This document shows positions 12,571 through 27,292 of a stretch of DNA of 64,000 nucleotides, in pieces. A program made the translations under genes and the position numbers. The notes below the pieces were generated by a model, which had not been told where the DNA came from, did not search any database, and saw only the letters and a program-made list of their open reading frames with translations. Source of the DNA: Promethearchaeota archaeon (GTDB lineage Archaea; Asgardarchaeota; Lokiarchaeia; Sigyniarchaeales; SOKP01); contig JBHLOY010000003.1 in assembly GCA_048939995.1 (NCBI GenBank), positions 128,001-192,000 on the forward strand, written 5' to 3'. Every line of letters starts with the position of its first letter. The first letter of the stretch is position 1.

Positions 12571-13545
12571 TTATTCTACTTTAATTTTAGAAACTAATTC
12601 CTCTTTTTTAAGCTTTTTTTGCTCCTTATACTTATGTTTCTTTTTCTCGTAATCTGCTCTTTTCTCTTGAAACTCATGCTTTTTTTTCCATGCTTTCTTT
12701 TTATTATGTTTCTTATTTAAATATTCCTTTTTAGCCTTCTTGTATTCCTTTTTAGCTTTCTTATACTCTTTTTTACTCTTTTTATACTTTTCATACTTTT
12801 TTTTAAATTCCTTTCTCAGATTGGGACTGATTTTTTGAATTCCAAGATCACTCAATTGGTTTCTAAACTTTTCAAAAGATTCAAATCTTAAGACAATTAT
12901 GCCTAACTCATGAGCAGGAATTAGGTTCCTCATTTTGTCATCAATAAAAACGCATTTTTTAGGTTTTGCATCTAACTTTTTTAAAACATATTTATATTTT
13001 TCAATATCTGGTTTTATTAAACCAATTTCATTCGATAAAAATACATAATCAAACATTTCATAAAATCCTCTTAACTCATTTGACTTTGCATGGATATCAT
13101 GAGTGTTTGACATTAAACTTACAATATACCCTGCCTTATGTAATCTTTCAATTACTTCGGCCATTTCTAAAGATAAATGAGTCACCTTCGTGTATAAGTT
13201 AAACCAGAGTTCAACATAATAGGCAATGTTAACCCTTTTGGGAGGCAAAGCCCCATTTTTCGTTTGAAAAGGATAATAGTATTTTTCTAAAATTTTTTCT
13301 AAAAATTCATCAGAAGATATTATCCCTGAACTTAATCTACGTTTTAATTTTCTGATGTAAGGCGCCTCATCGATTTTTGGAATAGATATCATTAAGTCAC
13401 TTTCTATAAGTTCAAACAAATTTTTAAGTACAAAAGTTTTTTCTATTAAAACCCCTCCAAAGTCGAAAATGAAATGTTTAATTTTGTATAATCTAACCTT
13501 CTGCTTTTTAAGTATTTCTTTATCGAAATCTTCTTTTTCTGTCAA
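12571..13545 (-). CDS. HAD-superfamily phosphatase with ~80-aa Lys-rich C-terminal tail
   Basis: Motif I FDFGGV, motif II MSNT, motif III KP, motif IV FIDD; TTG start. Confidence 0.85.
   Translation of the reverse strand: MTEKEDFDKEILKKQKVRLYKIKHFIFDFGGVLIEKTFVLKNLFELIESDLMISIPKIDEAPYIRKLKRRLSSGIISSDEFLEKILEKYYYPFQTKNGALPPKRVNIAYYVELWFNLYTKVTHLSLEMAEVIERLHKAGYIVSLMSNTHDIHAKSNELRGFYEMFDYVFLSNEIGLIKPDIEKYKYVLKKLDAKPKKCVFIDDKMRNLIPAHELGIIVLRFESFEKFRNQLSDLGIQKISPNLRKEFKKKYEKYKKSKKEYKKAKKEYKKAKKEYLNKKHNKKKAWKKKHEFQEKRADYEKKKHKYKEQKKLKKEELVSKIKVE
12722..12784 (-). repeat. Imperfect 21-bp tandem repeat encoding KKEYKK(A/S) heptads
   Basis: Plus strand: tattcctttttagccttcttg / tattcctttttagctttctta / tactcttttttactcttttta. 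Confidence 0.75.
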
Positions 13546-13562
13546 CTTTTAATCTCAATATA

Positions 13563-14360
13563 TTAATTTCTTTTATATTTTTCAATAATCATGTCACATA
13601 TTTTAGATACTGGATTGTGATTACCCTCCCAATTTGAAAACTCAGGGAAAGTGCCAGGATCTACTATATATAACTTATTAGATGACATTTCTCGAACCAT
13701 ATCTAAATGTCCAAATAATAAACCGGTTTTCTCTTTCCATTTCCAGACAATTTCTTTAATATCTAGGGGAGTTTCAATTATTTCAATGGGAGCATGTTCA
13801 TTCTCTAATGGCTCTTTCTTACAGACACATATTTCACTATTAATAAAATATACTAAGTAATGGATTCCATAAATAAATCGTTCGAGGTATAATATATTTG
13901 TCGGATCTTCCCTGATGTCTTTTATTGAGTTAATTAGTTTAACTCCTTTACTTCCTGATCCCATAAGAGGCTTTAATATCAATGGAAATAAACCATCAGA
14001 GATTTTATTTAAAGATTCAGATGTTCCTAAAAAGATGTGAGGGATATTGAAATTTAAATCTTTCAATAAAAAAGAGGCTTCCACTCTGTTCTTACATCTA
14101 AAAGATATATTTGTATTTGGAATTACAGGTATTTTATGTGCTTCTAAAAAATATCCTGCATAGAGAAATTGCAAATGTTTTGATTTCAGAATAAAGAAGT
14201 CGTTTTCGAGTAAGGAATTATTAATATATAGATTCCTTTTAGTGTACAACTTTACTTTAAATCCTTTCTTTTCGTAATAACTTTTCATTTTTCCGGTAAA
14301 ATGAGTCGATCTCTTTGACAGAATGCCTATTTTCATAATATGACCTCTATCTTTTAGCAT
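13563..14360 (-). CDS. ATP-grasp protein, divergent RimK/ITPK1-like (start may be the ATG at 14336)
   Basis: FPLILKPLMGSGSKGV, YLERFI, LFGHLDMV and YIVDPGTFPEF motifs. Confidence 0.75.
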   Translation of the reverse strand: MLKDRGHIMKIGILSKRSTHFTGKMKSYYEKKGFKVKLYTKRNLYINNSLLENDFFILKSKHLQFLYAGYFLEAHKIPVIPNTNISFRCKNRVEASFLLKDLNFNIPHIFLGTSESLNKISDGLFPLILKPLMGSGSKGVKLINSIKDIREDPTNILYLERFIYGIHYLVYFINSEICVCKKEPLENEHAPIEIIETPLDIKEIVWKWKEKTGLLFGHLDMVREMSSNKLYIVDPGTFPEFSNWEGNHNPVSKICDMIIEKYKRN

Positions 14361-15165
14361 GCTCTAATAAGAAATTAGTTACTTTCTTGGGTCCATCTTT
14401 GATATAATTAAAATTCGGAGTCGAATTAACGTCGGTAACATAAAATTTTCCTTCTTTAGATTTTAAAAAATCTACTGATATTATATTTAAATCAAGGATT
14501 TTTTGGATAGTTCTAACTTTTTCTTCTAGTTCTGAGATAAAATCGATCTCCTTCCTTGATTTCATTTTATCTGGATCAATTAATACAGGGATTTGTTTGT
14601 AGAAGTACAGTGTATCCCCTATACCATAAACCTTATATTCCCATTTACTTTTAATGAATTTTTGATAATAATAGAATTGATAGTTTTCAGGGTTCCCATA
14701 AGCCTCAGTTAAAGCTCTCTCATCAACAATTTTGAGATGCCCCTCTACTTTTTCTATTTTTGGTTTGAAAGCATAATTTTTTTGGTCCACCACATTTTTT
14801 ATGATATAATCTTCAAAGGGTGGGGGCATTCCAACAGGTATTATCGCATAATCGGGAACATCGATTCCTGCTTTAGCTAACAATATACTACTTAAAAATC
14901 TATGAGATGATAACAAAATTCCTTTTGATGAATTGAAAACTGGAATTGATGTTTCATGTTCAATTAATTTTACTAAATTTAGTATTAAATCTCCTTTTCC
15001 TTTTACAAAGAAAACATCCTCTTTAAAGTCTGTAATTGAAAAGTCTAATAAGAAAGCTTCTTCCAAATAAATAGATATCTCTGCAGATTTTTTCAAATAT
15101 TTTAGAAATTCATTGACTTTCTTTTCTAAATGGTATTTGTCAATAATTAATCCGATCTTGGTCAA
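14347..15165 (-). CDS. ATP-grasp protein, ITPK1-like
   Basis: YYQKFI...EYKVYGIGD, ISVDFL and YVTDVNSTPNF motifs; TTG start. Confidence 0.75.
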   Translation of the reverse strand: MTKIGLIIDKYHLEKKVNEFLKYLKKSAEISIYLEEAFLLDFSITDFKEDVFFVKGKGDLILNLVKLIEHETSIPVFNSSKGILLSSHRFLSSILLAKAGIDVPDYAIIPVGMPPPFEDYIIKNVVDQKNYAFKPKIEKVEGHLKIVDERALTEAYGNPENYQFYYYQKFIKSKWEYKVYGIGDTLYFYKQIPVLIDPDKMKSRKEIDFISELEEKVRTIQKILDLNIISVDFLKSKEGKFYVTDVNSTPNFNYIKDGPKKVTNFLLEHAKR

Positions 15166-15372
15166 GTAATTTACCTTGTTGATACTTTTTTGAAGAAAAA
15201 TTGACGTATTTAGTTACAAATTTTATTATCTTATTTTAATATAAATAAGTCTTAAGGAATAATAAATTTAGGTTCCAAAAGGAATCTATGAATATTTGGT
15301 TTGTTATTTAAAATAAATATATTTATATAATATAATTTGCTTTTTAGAAATTGAATTAATAGGGTTTTTGAA

Positions 15373-16287
15373 ATGGCTAATAATGTTAAAAGGATTCATA
15401 TTGGAGCCATTTGTAATAGAGATCTCGAGGTTTTGGACAGAATAAAGAAATTTTTACTAAAAAATTACAACATATTTATTGTCGATTTACTAAAAAAAGG
15501 CTCCAATTCTTTTGATATTAAATATTTTAAAAAACAAATAAAAAAATACTCAATCTGTTTTTTAATTGTCAAACTGACAACCCAAAATTCTAATGAAGAG
15601 ATTTATGAGGCAATTAAGCGAGTAAGTCCTAATATTCTGGTTCTAAATAGTTTAAGTTCAGTTCAAGTTTGCGAAAGTCGTAAAGACACCTTTGCAAAGA
15701 TTAGTCAAAATTGTAAAAAAGTAAAGATTCCCACCACTTACTTTACATTAAAAGAAGCATTAAAAGCATGTCAAACTGGAACTAAAATAATTATTAAACT
15801 TGATGCTCATAATATCCCAAATTTTCCAAAGAATGATAGGATAATAGGAGTCGCCCATAATGTAAGTGAATTTAATGAGATGATTCAAACCTATAATGAA
15901 AAAGATTTATTTTTTCAAGAGTATTTAGGAGAGTTTGATATTATCTATAAAGTATATGTGATTGACCGATGGATGGTTTCAATTACATCTCATAATAGGC
16001 TACAAGATATTGATAATTTAACTCCATTAGAATTAATCCATATAAGAGTACCAATTGAAAAACAATTAAAAAGTAGAATAAAAAGGTTAGGCCGTAGATT
16101 CAGAATGAATATTTTTGGTTTAGACTACATTTTAACCGAAGATGGACCATGTATTATTGATGTTAACGATTTTCCAAGTTTTAGAAGTATCCCTGAAGGA
16201 ATAAGCTTAATTTCGGATTATATTTATAATCTCATATCATTACGAGAACAATATTTTCAAATGCGAGTTAAAGCTGAAGCAAAATAA
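15373..16287 (+). CDS. ATP-grasp inositol-phosphate kinase, ITPK1-like
   Basis: FFQEYL...IYKVYVI, IFGLDYI and IIDVNDFPSF motifs (compare ITPK1 QEF..H.G..FKVYV, LFGxD, IDINxFPGY). Confidence 0.75.
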   Translation: MANNVKRIHIGAICNRDLEVLDRIKKFLLKNYNIFIVDLLKKGSNSFDIKYFKKQIKKYSICFLIVKLTTQNSNEEIYEAIKRVSPNILVLNSLSSVQVCESRKDTFAKISQNCKKVKIPTTYFTLKEALKACQTGTKIIIKLDAHNIPNFPKNDRIIGVAHNVSEFNEMIQTYNEKDLFFQEYLGEFDIIYKVYVIDRWMVSITSHNRLQDIDNLTPLELIHIRVPIEKQLKSRIKRLGRRFRMNIFGLDYILTEDGPCIIDVNDFPSFRSIPEGISLISDYIYNLISLREQYFQMRVKAEAK

Positions 16288-16288
16288 A

Positions 16289-17380
16289 TTATTTTTCTCG
16301 TCTGTTTTTCAGAAATTCTATTAATCTTTCCTTAGCAATGTAGTCTTCTAATTGTTCAGGGGGATGCTTTGCAAAAAAAGAACAAGCTGAATATAAAACA
16401 CCCCCTATATTTCTATCTTTAGCTATTTTACTAACACGTATGCAATCCGTAATAACACCTGCCGAATTATTCCCATCTTCTACAAATAAAGTGAGATCTA
16501 TTCTTACGGGAGCTCCTCCAAAAACACGGCCTTCAAGTCTAATATATGCTTCTTTTTGGTTTTTTAAGAATGGAATATAATCAACTGCAGAAATTTGACA
16601 ATCTATAGAATCTTTATTTTCTAAATTAGCTATAACCGATTCTGTTTTAGATTGTCGTTTTCCTTCTTCATAACGTAAAGTACCATCATTCATAGGGGTT
16701 AATAAGTTACAAAAATCACTTGAACCTCCCCAATCAAGTTGCAATGTTCGATCTAAGATTGCTCCTCTCATAGGAAATAGATTAGCAAGTGATCTATGTA
16801 TAATAGTTGCCCCAATTTGAGATTTTACATCATCTCCTATAAGTGGGAGGTTTAATTCTTCAGCTTTAGCAATTATTTCTGGATTTTTAACAACATGAGA
16901 TGGCATTCCATTCACAACACAAGCTCCTGCATCAAGAGCTGCCATGGCATAATATTTTACAGCTTTATGGCTTCCAGTAGGAAGTAATATAACAACAACA
17001 TCAACGTTTCTATTTATTAATTCTTTAACCATATCAACAGGCTTTTGATTGTAGTCTATAGGAATAATATTTTTTATATTACTGTCTAATCCATCCATAA
17101 TAGGACCTTTAACTACAGGTGCATTTAGAAACTTTGGTTTAAAGAGAATCATGTTACAATTAGGCTCAGCAAAAATCGCTTCACTTAAATCCTTACCAAC
17201 TTTTTTTGAATTTACATCCACTCCTAATACAAAATTAATGTCATTTATACTATATTGAGTTATCTCTGGTAGGACTCCTATAATTTTGTTGGGATTTTGT
17301 TTATAATTCTCACACCCTTGTATTAAAGCGCTTGCTACATCTCCTACTCCAATAATAGCGACGTTGATTTTTTTCGCCAT
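16289..17380 (-). CDS. ino1: Myo-inositol-1-phosphate synthase
   Basis: IIGVGDVAS, LPTGS, GDDVKSQIGATIIHR, SKT, DYIPFL, NSAG and KHPP motifs. Confidence 0.92.
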   Translation of the reverse strand: MAKKINVAIIGVGDVASALIQGCENYKQNPNKIIGVLPEITQYSINDINFVLGVDVNSKKVGKDLSEAIFAEPNCNMILFKPKFLNAPVVKGPIMDGLDSNIKNIIPIDYNQKPVDMVKELINRNVDVVVILLPTGSHKAVKYYAMAALDAGACVVNGMPSHVVKNPEIIAKAEELNLPLIGDDVKSQIGATIIHRSLANLFPMRGAILDRTLQLDWGGSSDFCNLLTPMNDGTLRYEEGKRQSKTESVIANLENKDSIDCQISAVDYIPFLKNQKEAYIRLEGRVFGGAPVRIDLTLFVEDGNNSAGVITDCIRVSKIAKDRNIGGVLYSACSFFAKHPPEQLEDYIAKERLIEFLKNRREK

Positions 17381-17484
17381 AATATTTTCTATAATAAAAG
17401 GATTGTATTTAAATCATTTTAAAATCTAAAGCTTTAATATTGAATTATAATTTGCAAATAATCTAGAAAATGAAAAATTAAACC

Positions 17485-19923
17485 ATGGTGGCTACCATAC
17501 TATTTAATCAAATTAACTTAAATTTGCTTCCATTAATTATTATCTTTTTGATATTATTTTTTATTGCAGTGTATTTATTCTTACCTTGGATCTTTAAAAT
17601 TTTTGTGTCTCCCAGATTTAATGCTAGTTATATCTATCGCTCAAAGGATTTTAAAAAAAAAGAATTAGACGTTCCTCTAAATAAAAAAGATAATTTTCAA
17701 ATAGATTTTGATAACAAATCAGGATTATATTCTATTTCATTTGGAAAAAACAGAAAATTTTTGGATGGAAATATAAAAATTAGGTACCAATTAAGAGATT
17801 ACAGTATTTGTAAAACAAAAAGTAAGTCTCTCAAATTAATCTCTTGTGCTGAAATCGATGGAAATGATAGACTAGGAGCATTCAAATCAATAAATGCCGA
17901 ATTTAGGTTGAAAGACGAAGACCTTTTTTTTGAGATTTCAATAAAAAATTACATTCAAGAAAAATTCATTATATTTGAGCTGAATGTTCCTAAAGGTTTA
18001 GAAAACGATTTTTCTGATAAAAAGTCAAAGCTTATTACCTCCTTTCCGTCCTTTATAAATAAAAGCCCTCATACAAAAATACTTACTTTCCGGAATACAA
18101 AATTTTGTCCTCCTTCAAGAAAATTTGATTCTACGTCTGCTCCTGTTTTATTATATGATGATGATTTAAATTGTTTTACCTTGTGTCCCTTAGATGGGTT
18201 TTTAAATACTTTGATCTCAAAAGATAAACATAACAGAATAAATTGTGGCATCCAAGGAGAAATTAAAGAATTACCAAAAAATTTTTCTCAAAAATTTATT
18301 CTTCTTTTTAGTAAAGGGATAAATCATTCTTTGGAGCATTTAGGAGATATTTTATTAAAATTTCATGATTCTAAACGCAAAAATCTTTATGCTAATGTTG
18401 TTACGTCATATTTAGGATATTGGACAGATAACGGTGGATATTACTATTATAAGACTGAGAAAGGAATGAATTATGAAGACACAATGATGGTTATTAAAGA
18501 ATATTTTGTAAAAAATAATATACCAATAAAGTATTACAATTTTGATAGTTGGTGGTACTTAAAACATACAAATAAATTTTTTACTACGTTATTTAGGTTT
18601 ATTGTAAGACTAGCGGGAGGCGGATTATATGGTAATACTTTACTTTGGGAAGTCGATCCAACCAATTTTACAACTAATTTAAAGACTTTTCATCGAAAAT
18701 TTCAAATACCAATTACTGCCCATAATCGTCGTTGGGACTCTAGATCTCCTTATGTAGATAAGTATAAATTTGAAACCTACAAAAATCATGCTGTGCCACT
18801 GAAAAAAGAATTCTGGCAGTGGTTGATGACTCATGCGAGAGAAAGTGGCATTGTTGTTTACGAACAAGATTGGATTAAAAACCAAATTGCAAGTATGCCT
18901 ATTTTGAGGCAAAAATTCAATGCTCAAGAAAATTGGTTAAACAATATGGCCACTGCAGCAAAGGAAAATGAGATAGATGTATTTTATTGTATGCAAACTC
19001 CTGGAATCCTCCTATATAGTATAAAACATTCAAATGTTAATATTTCCAGATGCTCAGAGGATTATAATCACAGATGGCCTTTAACTTATAGATATGTTCA
19101 CTCAACTCAGACAAATATCCTTTTCAATGCGGTAGGAATTAATTCTCATCCAGATGTTTTCCGTTCAAGAACAATAGAAAATGTAAGATTAAGACCTTTT
19201 GGAGAAAAATATCCCAATTTTAAATGTCTATACCAGATCTTAAATGGTGGAGTAGTTGCTCCTGGTGATAAAAAAGAAAATGTAAATTGGGCTCTCCTTA
19301 AAAGAACATGTAGGGATGATGGTTTATTACTAAAGCCGGATAAATCATTAACAGTTAATGATCTAATGTTTAAGAAGCATAGAAAATACTATATTTGTGA
19401 TACTTATACTAAGATAAATCATTTAACTTGGAGTTATATTGTAATTACCAATATATGGCCTCGAAGAGTTAAAGAAACTTCTTTCACACTAAGAGATCTA
19501 GGCTTTGAGATGGGTGATTATATTATCTATGATTATTTTTCTGATACTTTATCTCGAATTAATTTTGATAAAAAGATTGAAATAGGGCGATTAAAAAGAT
19601 ATGGTTATAAATATTATATTATCTCCCCCCTCACAAAAAATGAAATGGCTTTAATTGGGTGTCCTGATAAATTCATTACTTGTTCAAGAAAACTAATTAT
19701 AAACATAAATACAGATGAGAGATCTATAAAATTTTCAGTTCAAAATATAAAAGGTGCTAAAGTAAAATTGTTGTTCTATTCAGAAAAAAGACCTACTAAA
19801 ATTCAGATTGATAATGAATTAAGCAATACATGGAATTATATTAAAGAACTTAGTAGATTAGAAGTAAACATTAGGTTCGATAAAGATAGTAGAAAAGAAA
19901 TTTTAATCCAAAATATGATCTAG
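17485..19923 (+). CDS. N-terminally membrane-anchored glycoside hydrolase-like protein (clan GH-D; raffinose synthase/Sip1-like C-terminus)
   Basis: N-terminal TM helix; LGYWTDNG, YNFDSWWY, YEQDW, RCSEDY, PGD, DGLLLKPD and ALIG..DKF motifs. Confidence 0.6.
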   Translation: MVATILFNQINLNLLPLIIIFLILFFIAVYLFLPWIFKIFVSPRFNASYIYRSKDFKKKELDVPLNKKDNFQIDFDNKSGLYSISFGKNRKFLDGNIKIRYQLRDYSICKTKSKSLKLISCAEIDGNDRLGAFKSINAEFRLKDEDLFFEISIKNYIQEKFIIFELNVPKGLENDFSDKKSKLITSFPSFINKSPHTKILTFRNTKFCPPSRKFDSTSAPVLLYDDDLNCFTLCPLDGFLNTLISKDKHNRINCGIQGEIKELPKNFSQKFILLFSKGINHSLEHLGDILLKFHDSKRKNLYANVVTSYLGYWTDNGGYYYYKTEKGMNYEDTMMVIKEYFVKNNIPIKYYNFDSWWYLKHTNKFFTTLFRFIVRLAGGGLYGNTLLWEVDPTNFTTNLKTFHRKFQIPITAHNRRWDSRSPYVDKYKFETYKNHAVPLKKEFWQWLMTHARESGIVVYEQDWIKNQIASMPILRQKFNAQENWLNNMATAAKENEIDVFYCMQTPGILLYSIKHSNVNISRCSEDYNHRWPLTYRYVHSTQTNILFNAVGINSHPDVFRSRTIENVRLRPFGEKYPNFKCLYQILNGGVVAPGDKKENVNWALLKRTCRDDGLLLKPDKSLTVNDLMFKKHRKYYICDTYTKINHLTWSYIVITNIWPRRVKETSFTLRDLGFEMGDYIIYDYFSDTLSRINFDKKIEIGRLKRYGYKYYIISPLTKNEMALIGCPDKFITCSRKLIININTDERSIKFSVQNIKGAKVKLLFYSEKRPTKIQIDNELSNTWNYIKELSRLEVNIRFDKDSRKEILIQNMI

Positions 19924-19927
19924 GGCT

Positions 19928-21250
19928 TTATTTTTTGATTAAAGTTTCCTTTACCTTTAAGAAAAGAGGAATAGATCCTAAAAAGAAAATTGGTGCGAAT
20001 ACAAATACAAATGATTCTGGTATGATACCAACTACTAACATATATGTAGCAACTAAACCACCTACTATAGAACCAATTATCTGCGAGAGAGTACGTATAA
20101 TATTTAACAATCCAAGGAACTTTCCTCTTTCAAATTCAGGTAATAAATCTTGCGACCATGCATTCATTGGGGTTTCTAAACCCAAAATGCCGATAAGTAT
20201 GAATGGAAATAATATCAGTAATAAAATTAAATTGATTGATGTTCCTAGTTTAACAAAGGGAATATAGATCATTGCCATTGATATAATGTATATTGAAAGT
20301 GGAATATATACTCGACGACCATGCTTATCGCTAAGATTTCCTAATATTGATATAGCTATAAATAGTACAATGAAGGAAATAAGAACTAAAAAGACCAACT
20401 CAATTGTAGTTAATCCTAAAGCGAATATCCATATAAACAAAAAAGGCATAATTGTAGATATTCCTGTTCTATATACTGTGAGCGCAATTACTAATTTGAA
20501 GAATTCCTTGTTTTCTCTTAATTTTTTCATATTAAAAATTTCTTTAAATTCAGTAAAAAATCCACTTTTGGGAGGTAATTCTTCTACAGATTTCTCCTTT
20601 ATAAACAAAAATCCTATAAGCCCTGTAATGCATATACTTATCCCACCAACAGCTAAAGTAAAAATATGACCCGTCTGTCCAATAAAAGTCCCCTCAGGTG
20701 TTTCTACTCCAAAAATCAAGTCTGCTACAAGGAATGAAGCTACGGCTAGTAATAATCCGATATTTCCTATAATATTCACAATACCATTTGCCCTTCCCCT
20801 TTTTTCTAGCTCAACTAAATCTGGAATAAGAGCGCGTTCAGATACATAATATGCATTTGATGTAATTCCAATTATTATGACATCTAAAATAATACATATT
20901 ATATAGGCAATTATGACATTTCCACCAGCAAGATTAATCGAAAAAGCAAATATTATCATTGAAACCCCTGAAATAATTCCATAGAGTAAAAATGGACGAC
21001 GTCTACCAAATTTTCCCCTTGTATTATCACTTTTTATTCCCCACATTAAATTTGTGACCAATCCCACTACTGCTGATAAACTAACCATTAGAGTAATGAA
21101 TAAAGGTTCCAAAAATAAAACTTGATCTAAATATGTATTTAAATAATTTTGCTCAAAGAAACCAAAGATTGTCTCGCCTGCTAAAAGAAGTCCTATTAAA
21201 TAAACTTGATTTCGCAAGAAATTGCTAAACACTTTTTCCCTTTTTCCCAT
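19928..21250 (-). CDS. MFS transporter, glycoside/sugar (GPH/SUC-like) type
   Basis: SDNTRGKFGRRRPF and LSDKHGRR motifs; ~12 TM. Confidence 0.85.
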   Translation of the reverse strand: MGKREKVFSNFLRNQVYLIGLLLAGETIFGFFEQNYLNTYLDQVLFLEPLFITLMVSLSAVVGLVTNLMWGIKSDNTRGKFGRRRPFLLYGIISGVSMIIFAFSINLAGGNVIIAYIICIILDVIIIGITSNAYYVSERALIPDLVELEKRGRANGIVNIIGNIGLLLAVASFLVADLIFGVETPEGTFIGQTGHIFTLAVGGISICITGLIGFLFIKEKSVEELPPKSGFFTEFKEIFNMKKLRENKEFFKLVIALTVYRTGISTIMPFLFIWIFALGLTTIELVFLVLISFIVLFIAISILGNLSDKHGRRVYIPLSIYIISMAMIYIPFVKLGTSINLILLLILFPFILIGILGLETPMNAWSQDLLPEFERGKFLGLLNIIRTLSQIIGSIVGGLVATYMLVVGIIPESFVFVFAPIFFLGSIPLFLKVKETLIKK

Positions 21251-21337
21251 GTTTAATCCTCCATTAACTATTTAAGGAATAAGTTTTAATTTTATTTTGA
21301 TTTTATTATTTAAAAGGATATCTTTTTAACACAAAGG

Positions 21338-22231
21338 ATGCTAAAAAAAGTCGTAATCTCTGCCAGAGAAGATCATGAAATAATAAAACGTGTAATAGGA
21401 AAATTAAGCAAGTTAAAAGAAATTGAACTTATTACTCATGATCCTAAAAAGGATTATTTCACCCTTTCAAGTATGCCTACATCATTTAAAGAAGCTGATT
21501 TAATTATTGTAAAGGTTAGAAATGAATGTTCAATTGATCTCCTTCACTTTGCTAAGATTTATAATATTCCAACACTTCATGATGTAGATACCGTTCTAAT
21601 GTGTAAAAATAAAGTTTCTCTTGACTTTTCTTTGCGAGAAGCGTTTGTTAAACATCCTACACTTAATAGATATTTTTCTCTGCCACATTCTTGGAACCAA
21701 AATGTATCTGATATATTACAATTTAAGGATTGGGCGGCCTCTAAACTACCATTCGTTATAAAAAGCCATTATCAGCATGATAAGAATAATCGATTTAATT
21801 TTTTGGTAAGAGAATTAAATGAAATCGATATATTTTGTAAAAAGTACGCAGAATTCCTGTATTATGATGTATATATACAAGAATTCATAGAAAGCGATGG
21901 TATTGAAAGGAAAATCTATGTGGTAGGTGATAAAATCTATGGTATCCAGAGAGAAAACCCCTTATATATCTACTTACGAGAGAAACCGGAAAATATTAAT
22001 GTTGAAAAAATTCCTAGACAAGAATTTAAAATAACAGAGAGTATTAGAACATTAGCGAGAATTTTAGCAAAAGAATTAGACGTAAAAATATTCGGATTTG
22101 ATCTTATTCGTCCTCTAAGTAAAAGAAAGTATTATTTAATTGATTTAAATGATTTTCCAGGATTTATGGGTATTCCAAATATAGAAGATGCAATAGTAGA
22201 ATACATTAAAAATTACATTTCAAATATTTAA
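21338..22231 (+). CDS. ATP-grasp inositol-phosphate kinase, ITPK1-like
   Basis: LPFVIKS, YIQEFIESDG.ERKIYVVGD, IFGFDLI and YYLIDLNDFPGF motifs. Confidence 0.78.
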   Translation: MLKKVVISAREDHEIIKRVIGKLSKLKEIELITHDPKKDYFTLSSMPTSFKEADLIIVKVRNECSIDLLHFAKIYNIPTLHDVDTVLMCKNKVSLDFSLREAFVKHPTLNRYFSLPHSWNQNVSDILQFKDWAASKLPFVIKSHYQHDKNNRFNFLVRELNEIDIFCKKYAEFLYYDVYIQEFIESDGIERKIYVVGDKIYGIQRENPLYIYLREKPENINVEKIPRQEFKITESIRTLARILAKELDVKIFGFDLIRPLSKRKYYLIDLNDFPGFMGIPNIEDAIVEYIKNYISNI

Positions 22232-22232
22232 C

Positions 22233-23081
22233 TTATGCTGTAATTAATGAAACTGGGAATATTACTAGCCAAGCTATAATCCCATATAGTATGCAAAAGT
22301 ACCCAAATTGAACTTTTTTTGAAATTCTGATTAAAATTTCCATTGAAAGATAACCTACTATAAAGCTGACGATAGTTACTATTATTATTGTTAATGGATC
22401 TAAGACACTGAGCATGTATCCTCCTCCAAACAAAATATCAACCACAATAGAAGCTAAGGCAACAGGAACAGACATCAAAAAACTTAATTTTAATGCATTT
22501 TCTTGTGTATACTTCTCAAGCAATATCGTCGAAACTGTGAAACCTGACCGGGAAACTCCTGGTAAAATAGCAAAACCTTGAGATAAACCTGCAAGAAGTG
22601 AATTTTTTATGGTTTCCTTGCCTGTGGTGTTTTGAATCTCCTTTGTGCCATATATCTTTTTAATTCTTAGTAAAAAAATCCCAGTTATTATTAAAAGTCC
22701 AGAAATTATTAAAGTTAAAATATCTCCCTGAGAAGAGGTAAATCCTCCTAAAATGATGAGTTGGAAAAGAAAATATAACGGTAAAGCAGTAATTGCGGTT
22801 CCAATTGTACCGATTATTAACCAATTTCTTTTTTTTATACTATTATCATCACTAATCGACCATTTAGGTAAGATAGTTTTAGCAATATTAAAGTAATCTT
22901 TTCTAAACTTAACTATAACTGCAAAAGTAGTTCCTAAATGTAACCAAATTGAAAGACTGAATGCTACATCTGGTGAGACGTCAAATAGATTCAATGAAAT
23001 AATCATTACCTGACCTGAAGATGATATTGGTAACCATTCAAAAAGACCCTGTAAGATTGCGATAATTATCAATTCAATCAT
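22233..23081 (-). CDS. uppP: Undecaprenyl-diphosphate phosphatase (BacA/UppP)
   Basis: QGLFEWLPISSSGQ, LHLGT and QGFAILPGVSRSGFT motifs. Confidence 0.92.
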   Translation of the reverse strand: MIELIIIAILQGLFEWLPISSSGQVMIISLNLFDVSPDVAFSLSIWLHLGTTFAVIVKFRKDYFNIAKTILPKWSISDDNSIKKRNWLIIGTIGTAITALPLYFLFQLIILGGFTSSQGDILTLIISGLLIITGIFLLRIKKIYGTKEIQNTTGKETIKNSLLAGLSQGFAILPGVSRSGFTVSTILLEKYTQENALKLSFLMSVPVALASIVVDILFGGGYMLSVLDPLTIIIVTIVSFIVGYLSMEILIRISKKVQFGYFCILYGIIAWLVIFPVSLITA

Positions 23082-23563
23082 AAATCTTCAATATAGTTTT
23101 TTAAACCCTTTAATAAACAATCAATAATTTCATCTCTAGCAACCCTAAACCCGCGTAATTCTTTCATAGATGGATCTTCGATGTCTCCAGAATCACCGGC
23201 AAATTCTTTTAACGTTACAATTACTTTATTACTTTTTTTGACGTATTTTTGAATTTCTTCACTATGATTCTGGGTTAGCGTAAGTATTAGATCAGAATCA
23301 TAAATTAAGTTAGGATGTCTTTTCAAGTCTATTGAAAGCGAATTATCTGGTAAATCAATTCCTATTTCTTTCATGGCTAATTTAGCATCAAGAGATATAA
23401 GCATCCCATCTCTTGCATTTGAAGATATCCCCCCAGACATAACATTTATATCTAGATTATATTTCGAAAACAAATTCTTTAAGAAACCAACTGCCATGGG
23501 GCTTCTGGCTGTATTCACACTGCAAACGATTAATATATTTTTATAAGGAAAGTTAGTCTTCAT
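23078..23563 (-). CDS. Low-molecular-weight phosphatase (LMW-PTP/ArsC fold)
   Basis: VCSVNTARSPMA P-loop (CX5R) and DIEDP motif. Confidence 0.88.
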   Translation of the reverse strand: MKTNFPYKNILIVCSVNTARSPMAVGFLKNLFSKYNLDINVMSGGISSNARDGMLISLDAKLAMKEIGIDLPDNSLSIDLKRHPNLIYDSDLILTLTQNHSEEIQKYVKKSNKVIVTLKEFAGDSGDIEDPSMKELRGFRVARDEIIDCLLKGLKNYIEDL

Positions 23564-24233
23564 AAAAACTCCCTATATTAACAAATTTCACATTCTTTTT
23601 TTTCATATTTTCTAAAGAATTTGAAATATTACCCGGAGGGATATCTATCCCTCTTGTTAAATCTATCAATAAATATCCTTCGAATCCAAAGTCAAGACCA
23701 TCCATAGCTGTAAAATAACAGCAGTAGTCTAATGCTAAACCACAAATAAAAATTCTCTTGATATTTAAAGACTTTAAATAACCTGCTAATCCAGTTTCAG
23801 ATTTTTTATCATTTTCAATAAATCCAGAATAACTATCAATCTGAGGATTATAACCTTTACGGATTATCGCATAAGCTAAATCTGTTTTTAGTTTACTATG
23901 GAAATCTGCCCCCCTTGAACCTTGTACGCAGTGATCAGGCCATAAAACAGGCCCAATCGCTTCAGTTTGATATAAATCTCCAGGATTTTTTCCTGGATGA
24001 TTACTTGCGAATGATAAGTGTTCTTGAGGATGCCAATCTTGGGTTAATACAATTATGGCATTACTTTTTTTAAACTTGCCTGCTAAAAGGTTGATATCAT
24101 TAATTATTTGGTCCCCTTCCTTAACTGGTAATGCTCCACCCGGCATAAAATCGTACTGCATATCCACGATAATCAACGCATCATCCTGATTAATTTCAAT
24201 ATTACTTATAACTTCTATATCCTCAATATCCAT
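23553..24233 (-). CDS. pncA: Nicotinamidase/pyrazinamidase
   Basis: VDMQYDFMPGGAL, TQDWHP, WPDHCVQGS.GA and GLALDYCC motifs. Confidence 0.93.
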   Translation of the reverse strand: MDIEDIEVISNIEINQDDALIIVDMQYDFMPGGALPVKEGDQIINDINLLAGKFKKSNAIIVLTQDWHPQEHLSFASNHPGKNPGDLYQTEAIGPVLWPDHCVQGSRGADFHSKLKTDLAYAIIRKGYNPQIDSYSGFIENDKKSETGLAGYLKSLNIKRIFICGLALDYCCYFTAMDGLDFGFEGYLLIDLTRGIDIPPGNISNSLENMKKKNVKFVNIGSFYED

Positions 24234-25102: not shown

Positions 25103-27292
25103 TTACCATGAAAGCCCTTTATTAAAGCGTAGATTACTTATTATTGAATTAGCTTCATGATCCGGAACTTCCATAAAAGAATAAAATTCATTTTGCCAGA
25201 AAGCTCTTCCAGAAGTAGCAGATCTAATATCTTCAGCGAATTTTATTGAATTCCTGACAGGAATAAGGATTTCAATTATCGCTTGATATTCCTTATCCTG
25301 GTTTATATTTTTAATTTTAGCAGAATATTTTGTAAGTAAAGATAAAACGCTCTTTATATAATCTGGAGGAAGTTGGATAATGCTATGGTATATTGGCTCA
25401 AGTAATATCAATTCTGCTTCATTTAGAGCTTTCTTTATACCCTCGTATAAAAGAGTTGATAATTCAGTGAATGCATTCTCTTCATTTAAATTATTTATTG
25501 TTAGATTTTCTATTAGAATTTTAAGTTCAGTAAGTTTTTCTCCGCAAAGTGGCCCATTCAACTGAATTTTTTCAAAACTTTCTATAATAGTATCTTTGAA
25601 AAAAGTACTAAAAGTATCTGCTCCATGATAAATTAATAGATTTTGGTCATCATCAAATTTCCAAAAATTTTTTATTTCATCCTCCTTCAAATTTGTTTTT
25701 TCTAATAAAACATCCTTGAGAGCATCCAATGGCTTAAAGGAACCAATATTTATTGATTGTAAAAATCGAGCAGTTTTAGGATCTAGTCTCTCAATTTTAA
25801 TTGATAATGTATTCTGGTTGTTTGGTGAATTTACAGTGATAAAAGAGGAATGATATCTACAAGATTCTTTAAAAACCGCTCTTGGTTCTGAAATCGATAC
25901 ATTCACACCTCTTTTTTCAATTTCTTTTGCTGTAACTTCAAGGTGCAATGGCCCCATACCCGATAATAAGAATTCACCATTTTCCTCATTTATTTCAAAC
26001 CTTAAGTTTGGATCCTCAATTAACAAGATTTCAATTAACTCTCTCATCTTATCTAAATTTCTAAGGTATTCCGGTTCGATGGATACGGTCACTACGGGGG
26101 TTGTTACGTATTTTACTTCCTCAAATGGAATCATTTCTTCTTTATATTTGCTTTCAACAATGGTTTCGCCACTTCTAATCTTTTTTAATCCCTCTATTGC
26201 TACAATATTTCCAACAAGAACCCGATCAACTTGTTCTCTTCTCTGTCCCATGAAAATAGCTGTTCTTTGGATAGTAGCATAATCGTTTTCCCTTAAAAGA
26301 AAAATTTCTTCTTTTTTTGAACAGATACCAGAGAAAATTCTTCCAGTTGCTACTAAATTTTGCTTATCAACTTGTACCTTACTTAAACAAATGACTAACG
26401 GACCATTTGGATCACAATTCTTCATAGCTCTTCCTATTTCTACATTAATATCACCGTCCCAGATTTTATCTATCCGATAACTCTGTGCATCTATAGGATT
26501 AGGAAGATGATCCACAACCATTTCTAATATTGCTCTGTGAATTGGAAAGTAGCTTGCTAAATCTGAATATGTTTTTTTAGAATAAGTCTCCTTTTTATAT
26601 CTAGCTCTTATGTCATTAAATTTAAGATCGCTTTCCTCTAACATTTTTAGAGTAAACCCCCATTTATGGAGAGCAGATCCAAAAGCAACATTTCCGCTAG
26701 CTGGAGATACTTGCCATTCTTTTTTAAATTCTTTGTCTGCAAATCTTTCAATAAGTGTATTAAAGTCATTTATTATTCGTGTATACTTCTTTCGTATCTG
26801 TTCGTCATTTAATTTCAATTCTCGAATAAGACGATCTACTTTATTAATAAATAGAATAGGCTTAACACACTCTTGTAGTGCTTGTTTAATCACTGTTTCT
26901 GATTGGCTAATAATTTCTTCGACAGCATCAACTACGACCACAACACCGTCTACAAGTCTTAAGGCTCTTGTTACTTTACCACTAAAATCTAAATGTCCAG
27001 GGGTATCTACTAAATTAATTAAAAAAGGTTTGCGTTTTTCTAATGTTTTTTCATAATATAATGAAATATTAGCTGATTTCATTGTAATTCCACGTTGTTG
27101 CTCTTCTTCTAAATAATCAAGTGCTCTGGCTTCTCCCGCTAATTCTGGTGACAAAAAACCTGCTTCACTTAATAATGAGTCAGATAAGGTAGTTTTTCCA
27201 TGATCAATGTGACCTACTAATCCAAAATTTCTAATATTTTCAGTCTGTTCCATCATTCGTAATATATCTGTAATTTCCTTTCTACGTGGCAT
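25103..27292 (-). CDS. Archaeal elongation factor 2 paralog (aEF-2p-like, lacks the diphthamide His motif)
   Basis: GHIDHGKTT, RGIT, DTPGH and NKVD G-motifs and the EF-2 domain order. The domain IV loop reads NNLNEENAFTEL in place of the canonical ...HRG.... Confidence 0.88.
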   Translation of the reverse strand: MPRRKEITDILRMMEQTENIRNFGLVGHIDHGKTTLSDSLLSEAGFLSPELAGEARALDYLEEEQQRGITMKSANISLYYEKTLEKRKPFLINLVDTPGHLDFSGKVTRALRLVDGVVVVVDAVEEIISQSETVIKQALQECVKPILFINKVDRLIRELKLNDEQIRKKYTRIINDFNTLIERFADKEFKKEWQVSPASGNVAFGSALHKWGFTLKMLEESDLKFNDIRARYKKETYSKKTYSDLASYFPIHRAILEMVVDHLPNPIDAQSYRIDKIWDGDINVEIGRAMKNCDPNGPLVICLSKVQVDKQNLVATGRIFSGICSKKEEIFLLRENDYATIQRTAIFMGQRREQVDRVLVGNIVAIEGLKKIRSGETIVESKYKEEMIPFEEVKYVTTPVVTVSIEPEYLRNLDKMRELIEILLIEDPNLRFEINEENGEFLLSGMGPLHLEVTAKEIEKRGVNVSISEPRAVFKESCRYHSSFITVNSPNNQNTLSIKIERLDPKTARFLQSINIGSFKPLDALKDVLLEKTNLKEDEIKNFWKFDDDQNLLIYHGADTFSTFFKDTIIESFEKIQLNGPLCGEKLTELKILIENLTINNLNEENAFTELSTLLYEGIKKALNEAELILLEPIYHSIIQLPPDYIKSVLSLLTKYSAKIKNINQDKEYQAIIEILIPVRNSIKFAEDIRSATSGRAFWQNEFYSFMEVPDHEANSIISNLRFNKGLSW

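Follow-up and report, generated by a model that had tools for sequence, protein, structure and literature searches.

A putative mobile cassette for inositol polyphosphate synthesis in a family of Lokiarchaeia

Results

Gene arrangement at the locus

In a 64,000-nucleotide stretch of DNA from a Promethearchaeota archaeon of the class Lokiarchaeia (assembly GCA_048939995.1, contig JBHLOY010000003.1, positions 128,001 to 192,000; the whole stretch is called the window below), a gene for inositol-phosphate synthase (MIPS, ino1) is surrounded by four genes for ATP-grasp proteins, which we label IKa (at 13563), IKb (14347), IKc (15373), and IKd (21338). The list of open reading frames (ORFs) of the window contains all eight ORFs of a first-pass annotation at the same coordinates, and the four ATP-grasp genes, which that annotation had placed within 9 kb around ino1, span 8.7 kb. 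The core cassette comprises the degenerate IKa (13563..14336, minus strand), IKb with the kinase-type residues K178, D232, D245, and N247 (14347..15165, minus strand), the ITPK-like kinase IKc (15373..16287, plus strand), and a variant MIPS with both Pfam domains (16289..17380, minus strand). IKd (21338..22231, plus strand), the most ITPK-like of the kinases, is a resident gene of the FKBP locus. The ORF call for IKa covers 13563-14360; its start is probably at 14336, which lies 10 nt after the IKb stop with a GAGGT motif ahead, as in the IKa orthologues.

The two PF05770 genes of the 3.75-Mb source genome sit inside the window, as does the single PF01658 gene that was found in that genome, and their clustering is therefore not a matter of chance. 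One IMPase-family gene, four CDP-alcohol phosphotransferase genes, and the true RimK-like gene of this genome are located elsewhere, the latter apart from the cluster.

Conservation and distribution

The relatives of the source genome carry the names Promethearchaeota or Lokiarchaeota, and within its family the gene order is FKBP, (HAD), IKa, IKb, IKc, MIPS, a variable slot, IKd, and UppP. The linkage between the kinases and MIPS, for which a synteny check had been proposed in the first-pass annotation, proved to be conserved: in 80 Loki metagenome loci, IKa comes directly after IKb in 74 of the 75 informative cases, IKc precedes IKb in 68/68, and MIPS adjoins IKc in 55/55, the gene after IKa being HAD in 32 loci and FKBP in 21. 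An intact IKa gene is present in 92 of 118 family genomes, nearly always immediately after IKb.

On a broader scale, IKb was found in 99 of the 134 genomes of the source's family, in a single further genome from its order, and in none of the other 264 among 398 Asgard genomes, and IKd-type kinases were likewise found within that single order only, these searches scoring few candidates per genome, so that a zero means “not found” and is not proof of absence. IKd occurs in 23/25 family relatives, including genera that have none of the remaining cassette genes. In these cassette-free genera it adjoins FKBP or sits one gene away, and in sister families related stand-alone kinases are neighbours of FKBP and have no MIPS in their vicinity. 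The simplest reading of these arrangements, drawn from gene order and distribution rather than from a species tree, is an insertion of the cassette between FKBP and the resident IKd. Weak IKd matches in G008, G009, and other Asgard families were RimK/LysX-like by motif and were rejected as kinases.

Outside Lokiarchaeia, the profile search led to a contig on which true orthologues of IKa, IKb, IKc, and MIPS form a single block (E-values 3e-78, 2e-79, 2e-51, and 4e-174, respectively), the MIPS of which clusters with Thermoplasmatota-named proteins. The same four-gene block is present in a second contig of this layout and in a 67%-GC contig with bacterial-type genes, and the arrangement IKb-IKa-MIPS occurs in another Promethearchaeota. 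In Burkholderiales GCA_046347905.1, IKa, IKb, and IKc likewise occur together, there without an adjacent MIPS. In the four non-Loki loci that were fetched, no HAD, glycosidase, MFS, or IKd gene was found, and bacterial IKb gave no plasmid match. In both bacterial copies a small ORF converges on IKc (L068, 8792-9175; L070, 8228-8893; 67% identity), and no archaeal counterpart of it was seen. Separately, bacterial ATP-grasp genes with a D-x-N motif form tandem or fused pairs (L065, 665-4158; L063, 295-2049), one set of them beside a mannitol-dehydrogenase gene; these represent a parallel polyol-phosphate cassette.

The ATP-grasp proteins

Four ITPK1-like paralogs had been proposed at the locus, two of them with near-canonical ITPK1 motifs. 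These motifs are confirmed in IKc and IKd, which score 23.8 and 59.3 bits with PF05770 and thus exceed the curated cut-off of 23, and the best PDB sequence matches of both proteins are ITPK1, those of IKc all being weak. The proposal fares worse for IKa and IKb, which remain under this cut-off (14.2 and 14.3 bits), have LysX/ArgX as first matches by fold, and do not form a single clade with the other two (see below). The four proteins also stay under the cut-offs of the ligase-type profiles (TIGR00768, at most 42 bits versus 143; PF08443, at most 20.5 bits versus 21), and none of them has the RimK/LysX motifs D-I-R and E-x-N, which are present in 7/7 members of a RimK-like control set. Pairwise identity among IKa, IKb, IKc, and IKd is just 16-21%; therefore, the four genes represent old lineages and not local duplicates.

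The substrate Lys and the D-D-N metal ligands of ITPK are invariant in all aligned IKb, IKc, and IKd sequences, so that the equivalents of ITPK1 residues K199, D281, D295, and N297 are present in these three proteins on an ATP-grasp fold, and the FP motif of the eukaryotic enzyme is found in IKc, IKd, and IKa. They differ from eukaryotic ITPK1 in that H167 is lost in the window proteins and R212 is kept in IKd only. R156 is invariant across the IKc family in the alignment, and by sequence IKc is classified as an ITPK-like kinase divergent from IKb. In IKa (aligned and modelled with its last 8 residues omitted), both Asp residues are kept, the substrate Lys is lost, and the metal-binding Asn is replaced by Gly (D-x-G) in 8/8 members, which makes it a probable non-catalytic partner of IKb.

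It had been considered that these proteins might group with RimK/LysX peptide ligases. In a tree rooted on RimK/LysX-like genes, all four fall together with eukaryotic ITPK-like proteins across a 99/99 branch, a side which also holds many prokaryotic proteins. A 91/90 branch unites IKc, IKd, a stand-alone Asgard clade, and the eukaryotes without resolution inside it, and IKa and IKb fall outside. The eukaryotic ITPK sequences form their own 100/100 clade, and a single clade of IKa-IKd is rejected (approximately unbiased test, p=0.002, 46 rows). PPIP5K and synapsin were left out of the trees, and the “eukaryotic” rows were assigned by motif, not by name.

The IKb-IKa pair

Modelling of the IKb-IKa complex gave a score of 0.91, the best of three controls reaching 0.01; the mark applied to this score is reached by 58/80 solved pairs and 2/110 mismatched pairs. 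Contact agreement between runs was at least 96%, and the partner pLDDT was at least 85. The model supports a predicted IKb-IKa heterodimer. ITPKs are generally described as monomers; the modelled pair differs in this respect from AtITPK4, for which a monomer in the asymmetric unit is described.

The variant MIPS

The cassette MIPS belongs to a long-branch clade (100/100) that includes Loki, Thermoplasmatota, and bacterial copies. It retains both Pfam domains (Rossmann and catalytic) and, by alignment, the catalytic Lys and Asp residues, as do mycobacterial-type MIPS and Ari2, from which it differs as a separate clade with conserved substitutions. The lysines kept are those designated catalytic in PMC11348189. 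The closest solved structure is MIPS of M. tuberculosis (E-value 4e-82, versus 2e-43 for Ari2), although a KRQSK motif is common to the cassette protein and Ari2, a MIPS homologue with a different product.

This variant is confined to kinase-bearing genomes, plus one fragmentary genome, and is co-distributed with IKb. It is the sole MIPS found in 14/17 genomes, the other three adding ordinary MIPS genes, and the ordinary-type MIPS of cassette-free relatives is 41-46% identical to it. Since 143/151 Asgard genomes have MIPS and the variant displaces the housekeeping copy, its product is presumably still myo-inositol phosphate. Many Asgard genomes have, in tandem, a second MIPS-like gene whose catalytic motifs are altered, e.g., D-L-Q-D for D-I-K-S (L085, 4039-6247; L086, 2986-5195; L092, 2110-4274). 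In genus g4, the frame of an ordinary MIPS (L088, 3459-4886) is open over about 511 aa, possibly as the result of a fusion.

Accessory and neighbouring genes

The HAD phosphatase gene (12571..13545, minus strand; PF00702) encodes a HAD-IA protein of the YihX / soluble epoxide hydrolase (sEH) N-domain type with a D-x-G motif I, YihX and sEH being its best solved relatives, and a conserved basic tail of 81 residues, 39 of which are K/R. A PDB search with this protein showed no link to the HAD-like domain of plant ITPK4. The gene is present in 12/15 cassette-bearing relatives and in 0/10 others, which bears out the link with the kinases proposed from the window alone and makes HAD an accessory of the cassette.

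The slot between MIPS and IKd holds in the window an ORF of 812 aa (17485..19923, plus strand) and a GPH-like MFS transporter gene (19928..21250, minus strand). Pfam and PDB searches gave no match to the 812-aa protein, its Atlas features are at 0.95-0.97 to raffinose synthase and melibiase clusters, D462 and D526 are invariant, and a hydrophobic stretch is present at the N-terminus. It resembles clan GH-D glycosidases and is a putative, membrane-anchored enzyme of the kind the first-pass annotation had named. The gene occurs in 4/15 cassette-bearing relatives and, unlinked, in one cassette-free relative. MFS was found in 12/15 cassette-bearing relatives and not in the other three, and cassette-free genomes have unlinked copies that are 67-70% identical. 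Among 20 fully visible loci (a sample in which the 6-kb flank favours short slots), the slot is empty in 10, holds MFS in 7, the 812-aa gene in 2, and MFS with an unrelated 936-aa gene in 1; a Zn dehydrogenase and GH2 are further contents in relatives. Because the 812-aa gene is present in so few relatives and MFS is uncoupled from the kinases, we place both outside the core, and the “complete module” of nine kilobases, with the glycosidase and the importer as its members, does not survive the comparison with relatives.

In several genomes the place of the 812-aa gene is taken by a gene for the 936-aa protein, usually with the Zn-dependent dehydrogenase (L044, 8315-12175); this protein has no Pfam match and no profile match to the 812-aa protein. 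One relative has three genes between IKc and MIPS (L039, 8070-10760), among them another HAD gene and one homologous to window ORF 51221. Whether or not the cassette is present, IKd is followed in most relatives by genes for UppP/BacA, a low-molecular-weight phosphatase, and a nicotinamidase-like protein (22233-24233, minus strand, in the window). Further on lies a gene for an EF-2-like GTPase (25103-27292, minus strand), in which the diphthamide loop lacks the usual His-Arg-Gly; it resembles the Asgard aEF-2 paralogue. A sigma-70 promoter scan of the window, using a model unsuited to archaea, gave hits at chance level only.

Discussion

Inositol kinases near an inositol-phosphate synthase are not new for this group of archaea, as the first-pass annotation had noted. 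In “Lokiarchaeum”, Desfougeres et al. (2019; PMC6900528) described four homologues of ITPK1 (LcIKA-D), which flank two IPS genes in two pairs; in yeast plc1-delta, LcIKC partly restored IP6. In both systems ITPK1-like ATP-grasp genes flank inositol-phosphate synthase in a Lokiarchaeon; the difference is that two pairs surround two IPS genes there, while four distinct lineages surround one here. The window IKc has the Arg156 named for LcIKC and is on the basis of this match probably its orthologue. The available text of PMC6900528 makes no mention of a variant MIPS, HAD, a degenerate subunit, or non-Asgard copies. A 2024 paper (PMC10897400) singles out the ITPKs of Lokiarchaea as the exception among prokaryotes with regard to inositol-phosphate kinases, in a 2026 preprint Asgard sequences are sister to eukaryotic ITPK1, and a literature search, with most subscription papers outside its coverage, revealed no later work on archaeal or bacterial ITPKs. 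Thus, the kinase-MIPS link and the presence of four ITPK1-like kinases at MIPS are largely published, and what is new here is the smaller cross-domain cassette, the variant MIPS, and the probable active/degenerate heterodimer.

We propose, with moderate confidence, that the variant MIPS, IKc, and the IKb-IKa pair represent a mobile cassette which makes a soluble inositol polyphosphate in part of one Lokiarchaeia family. This horizontally mobile cassette would have been inserted between FKBP and the resident kinase IKd. Its MIPS, a member of a family that converts glucose-6-phosphate into inositol 3-phosphate (Ins3P), would provide this precursor, and IKc, plus IKd where present, would phosphorylate Ins3P stepwise in a lipid-independent manner, as is shown in yeast for LcIKC, the probable orthologue of IKc. 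IKb, bound to the catalytically degenerate IKa, may attach one more phosphate, the acceptor possibly being a highly phosphorylated inositol, and HAD may serve for phosphate removal or trimming, while the glycosidase and the transporter would be passengers in a variable sugar-utilisation slot. For the product, a role in phosphate storage, in chelation, or as a solute is more probable than one in signalling. A bolder version, in which scattered archaea and bacteria use the cassette for de novo synthesis of inositol polyphosphates or pyrophosphates, with a hitherto undescribed kind of active/pseudo-active ATP-grasp heterodimer performing the last step, is for the present a tentative and rather doubtful suggestion.

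Several observations speak against the proposed synthesis of inositol polyphosphate. By fold, LysX/ArgX come first for IKb (Z 23.4, rmsd 2.9, 255 aligned; PPIP5K2 20.7, ITPK1 18.8) and for IKa (Z 18.9, rmsd 3.2, 232 aligned; ITPK1 14.6-14.8), profile comparisons of both proteins give the same order, and a broad IKc/IKd profile scored ArgX and ITPK1 about equally. The Loki IKc has Ser at the position of ITPK1 R212. The high score of the complex model may stem from likeness to solved RimK/LysX oligomers, the controls having held no paralogue. The cassette MIPS has conserved active-site substitutions (Asn to Asp, and Asn to Ser/Cys/Asp), located within the QLxxGG loop and close to catalytic motifs three and four. 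Finally, a 314-kb contig of uniform GC from Burkholderiales (GCA_046347905.1) has the three kinase genes IKa, IKb, and IKc without an adjacent MIPS, and a second contig similar to it also carries these three without MIPS.

The fold and profile rankings are the main argument for the suggestion that IKb-IKa is a RimK/LysX-type ligase, joining an amino acid or carboxylate to inositol phosphate to form a conjugated solute or head group, which would leave IKc and IKd as the only kinases. The window proteins are similar in size to RimK, LysX, and ArgX, which are oligomeric, dimer formation is typical of the RimK/LysX group, and IKa retains a RimK-like GS-rich loop. We nevertheless consider this unlikely, since the diagnostic Arg of the ligases is replaced by Lys (or lost) and their Glu by Asp: IKb has Lys and Asp in 11/11 sequences, as opposed to Arg and Glu in 7/7 of the RimK-like set. 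Both proteins lie across the 99/99 branch from the ligases, and Foldseek on IKb put the Vip1 kinase first, nearly tied with ArgX, although in VIA-align Vip1/PPIP5K rank below ArgX. The IKb fold is also nearer to the kinase domain of PPIP5K2 (PPIP5K / Vip1 / Asp1 group) than to ITPK1; it differs from this group in lacking the phosphatase domain, and the sequence similarity reaches an E-value of 0.02 only.

The long branch and altered active site of the cassette MIPS, the motif that it shares with Ari2, and the additional ordinary MIPS in three genomes could also mean that it yields another cyclitol phosphate (a stereoisomer, a different ring size, or an amino-cyclitol), to which the kinases are tuned. 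Its position as the sole MIPS found in most of the genomes that have it, within a phylum where MIPS is nearly universal, and the much closer match to the M. tuberculosis enzyme than to Ari2 make this quite improbable. Least probable of all, and largely refuted by distribution, is the initial proposal of a single signalling module made up of all eight genes, with writers, eraser, salvage, and import, from which eukaryotic InsP6/PP-InsP biology would have descended. It would account for the repeated presence of sugar-related genes in the slot and of HAD only with the cassette, and it agrees with the joint position of IKc, IKd, and eukaryotic ITPK under the 91/90 branch as well as with the sister relationship reported in the 2026 preprint. 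Against it are the frequently empty slot, the rarity of the glycosidase and the uncoupled MFS, the non-Loki copies without HAD, glycosidase, MFS, or IKd, and the rejection of a single kinase clade. Since the kinases were found in only one order among the 398 Asgard genomes, and the cassette is shared with bacteria, it is unlikely to be the eukaryotic precursor.

We therefore suggest that candidates for the eukaryotic ancestor be sought among the stand-alone FKBP-linked IKd-type kinases and not in the MIPS-linked cassette. Should the cassette function in the way suggested here, the synthesis of inositol polyphosphates would be a transferable trait, bacteria included, and if the de novo reading is true, molecules regarded as exclusive to eukaryotes and Lokiarchaea would be made naturally by bacteria as well.

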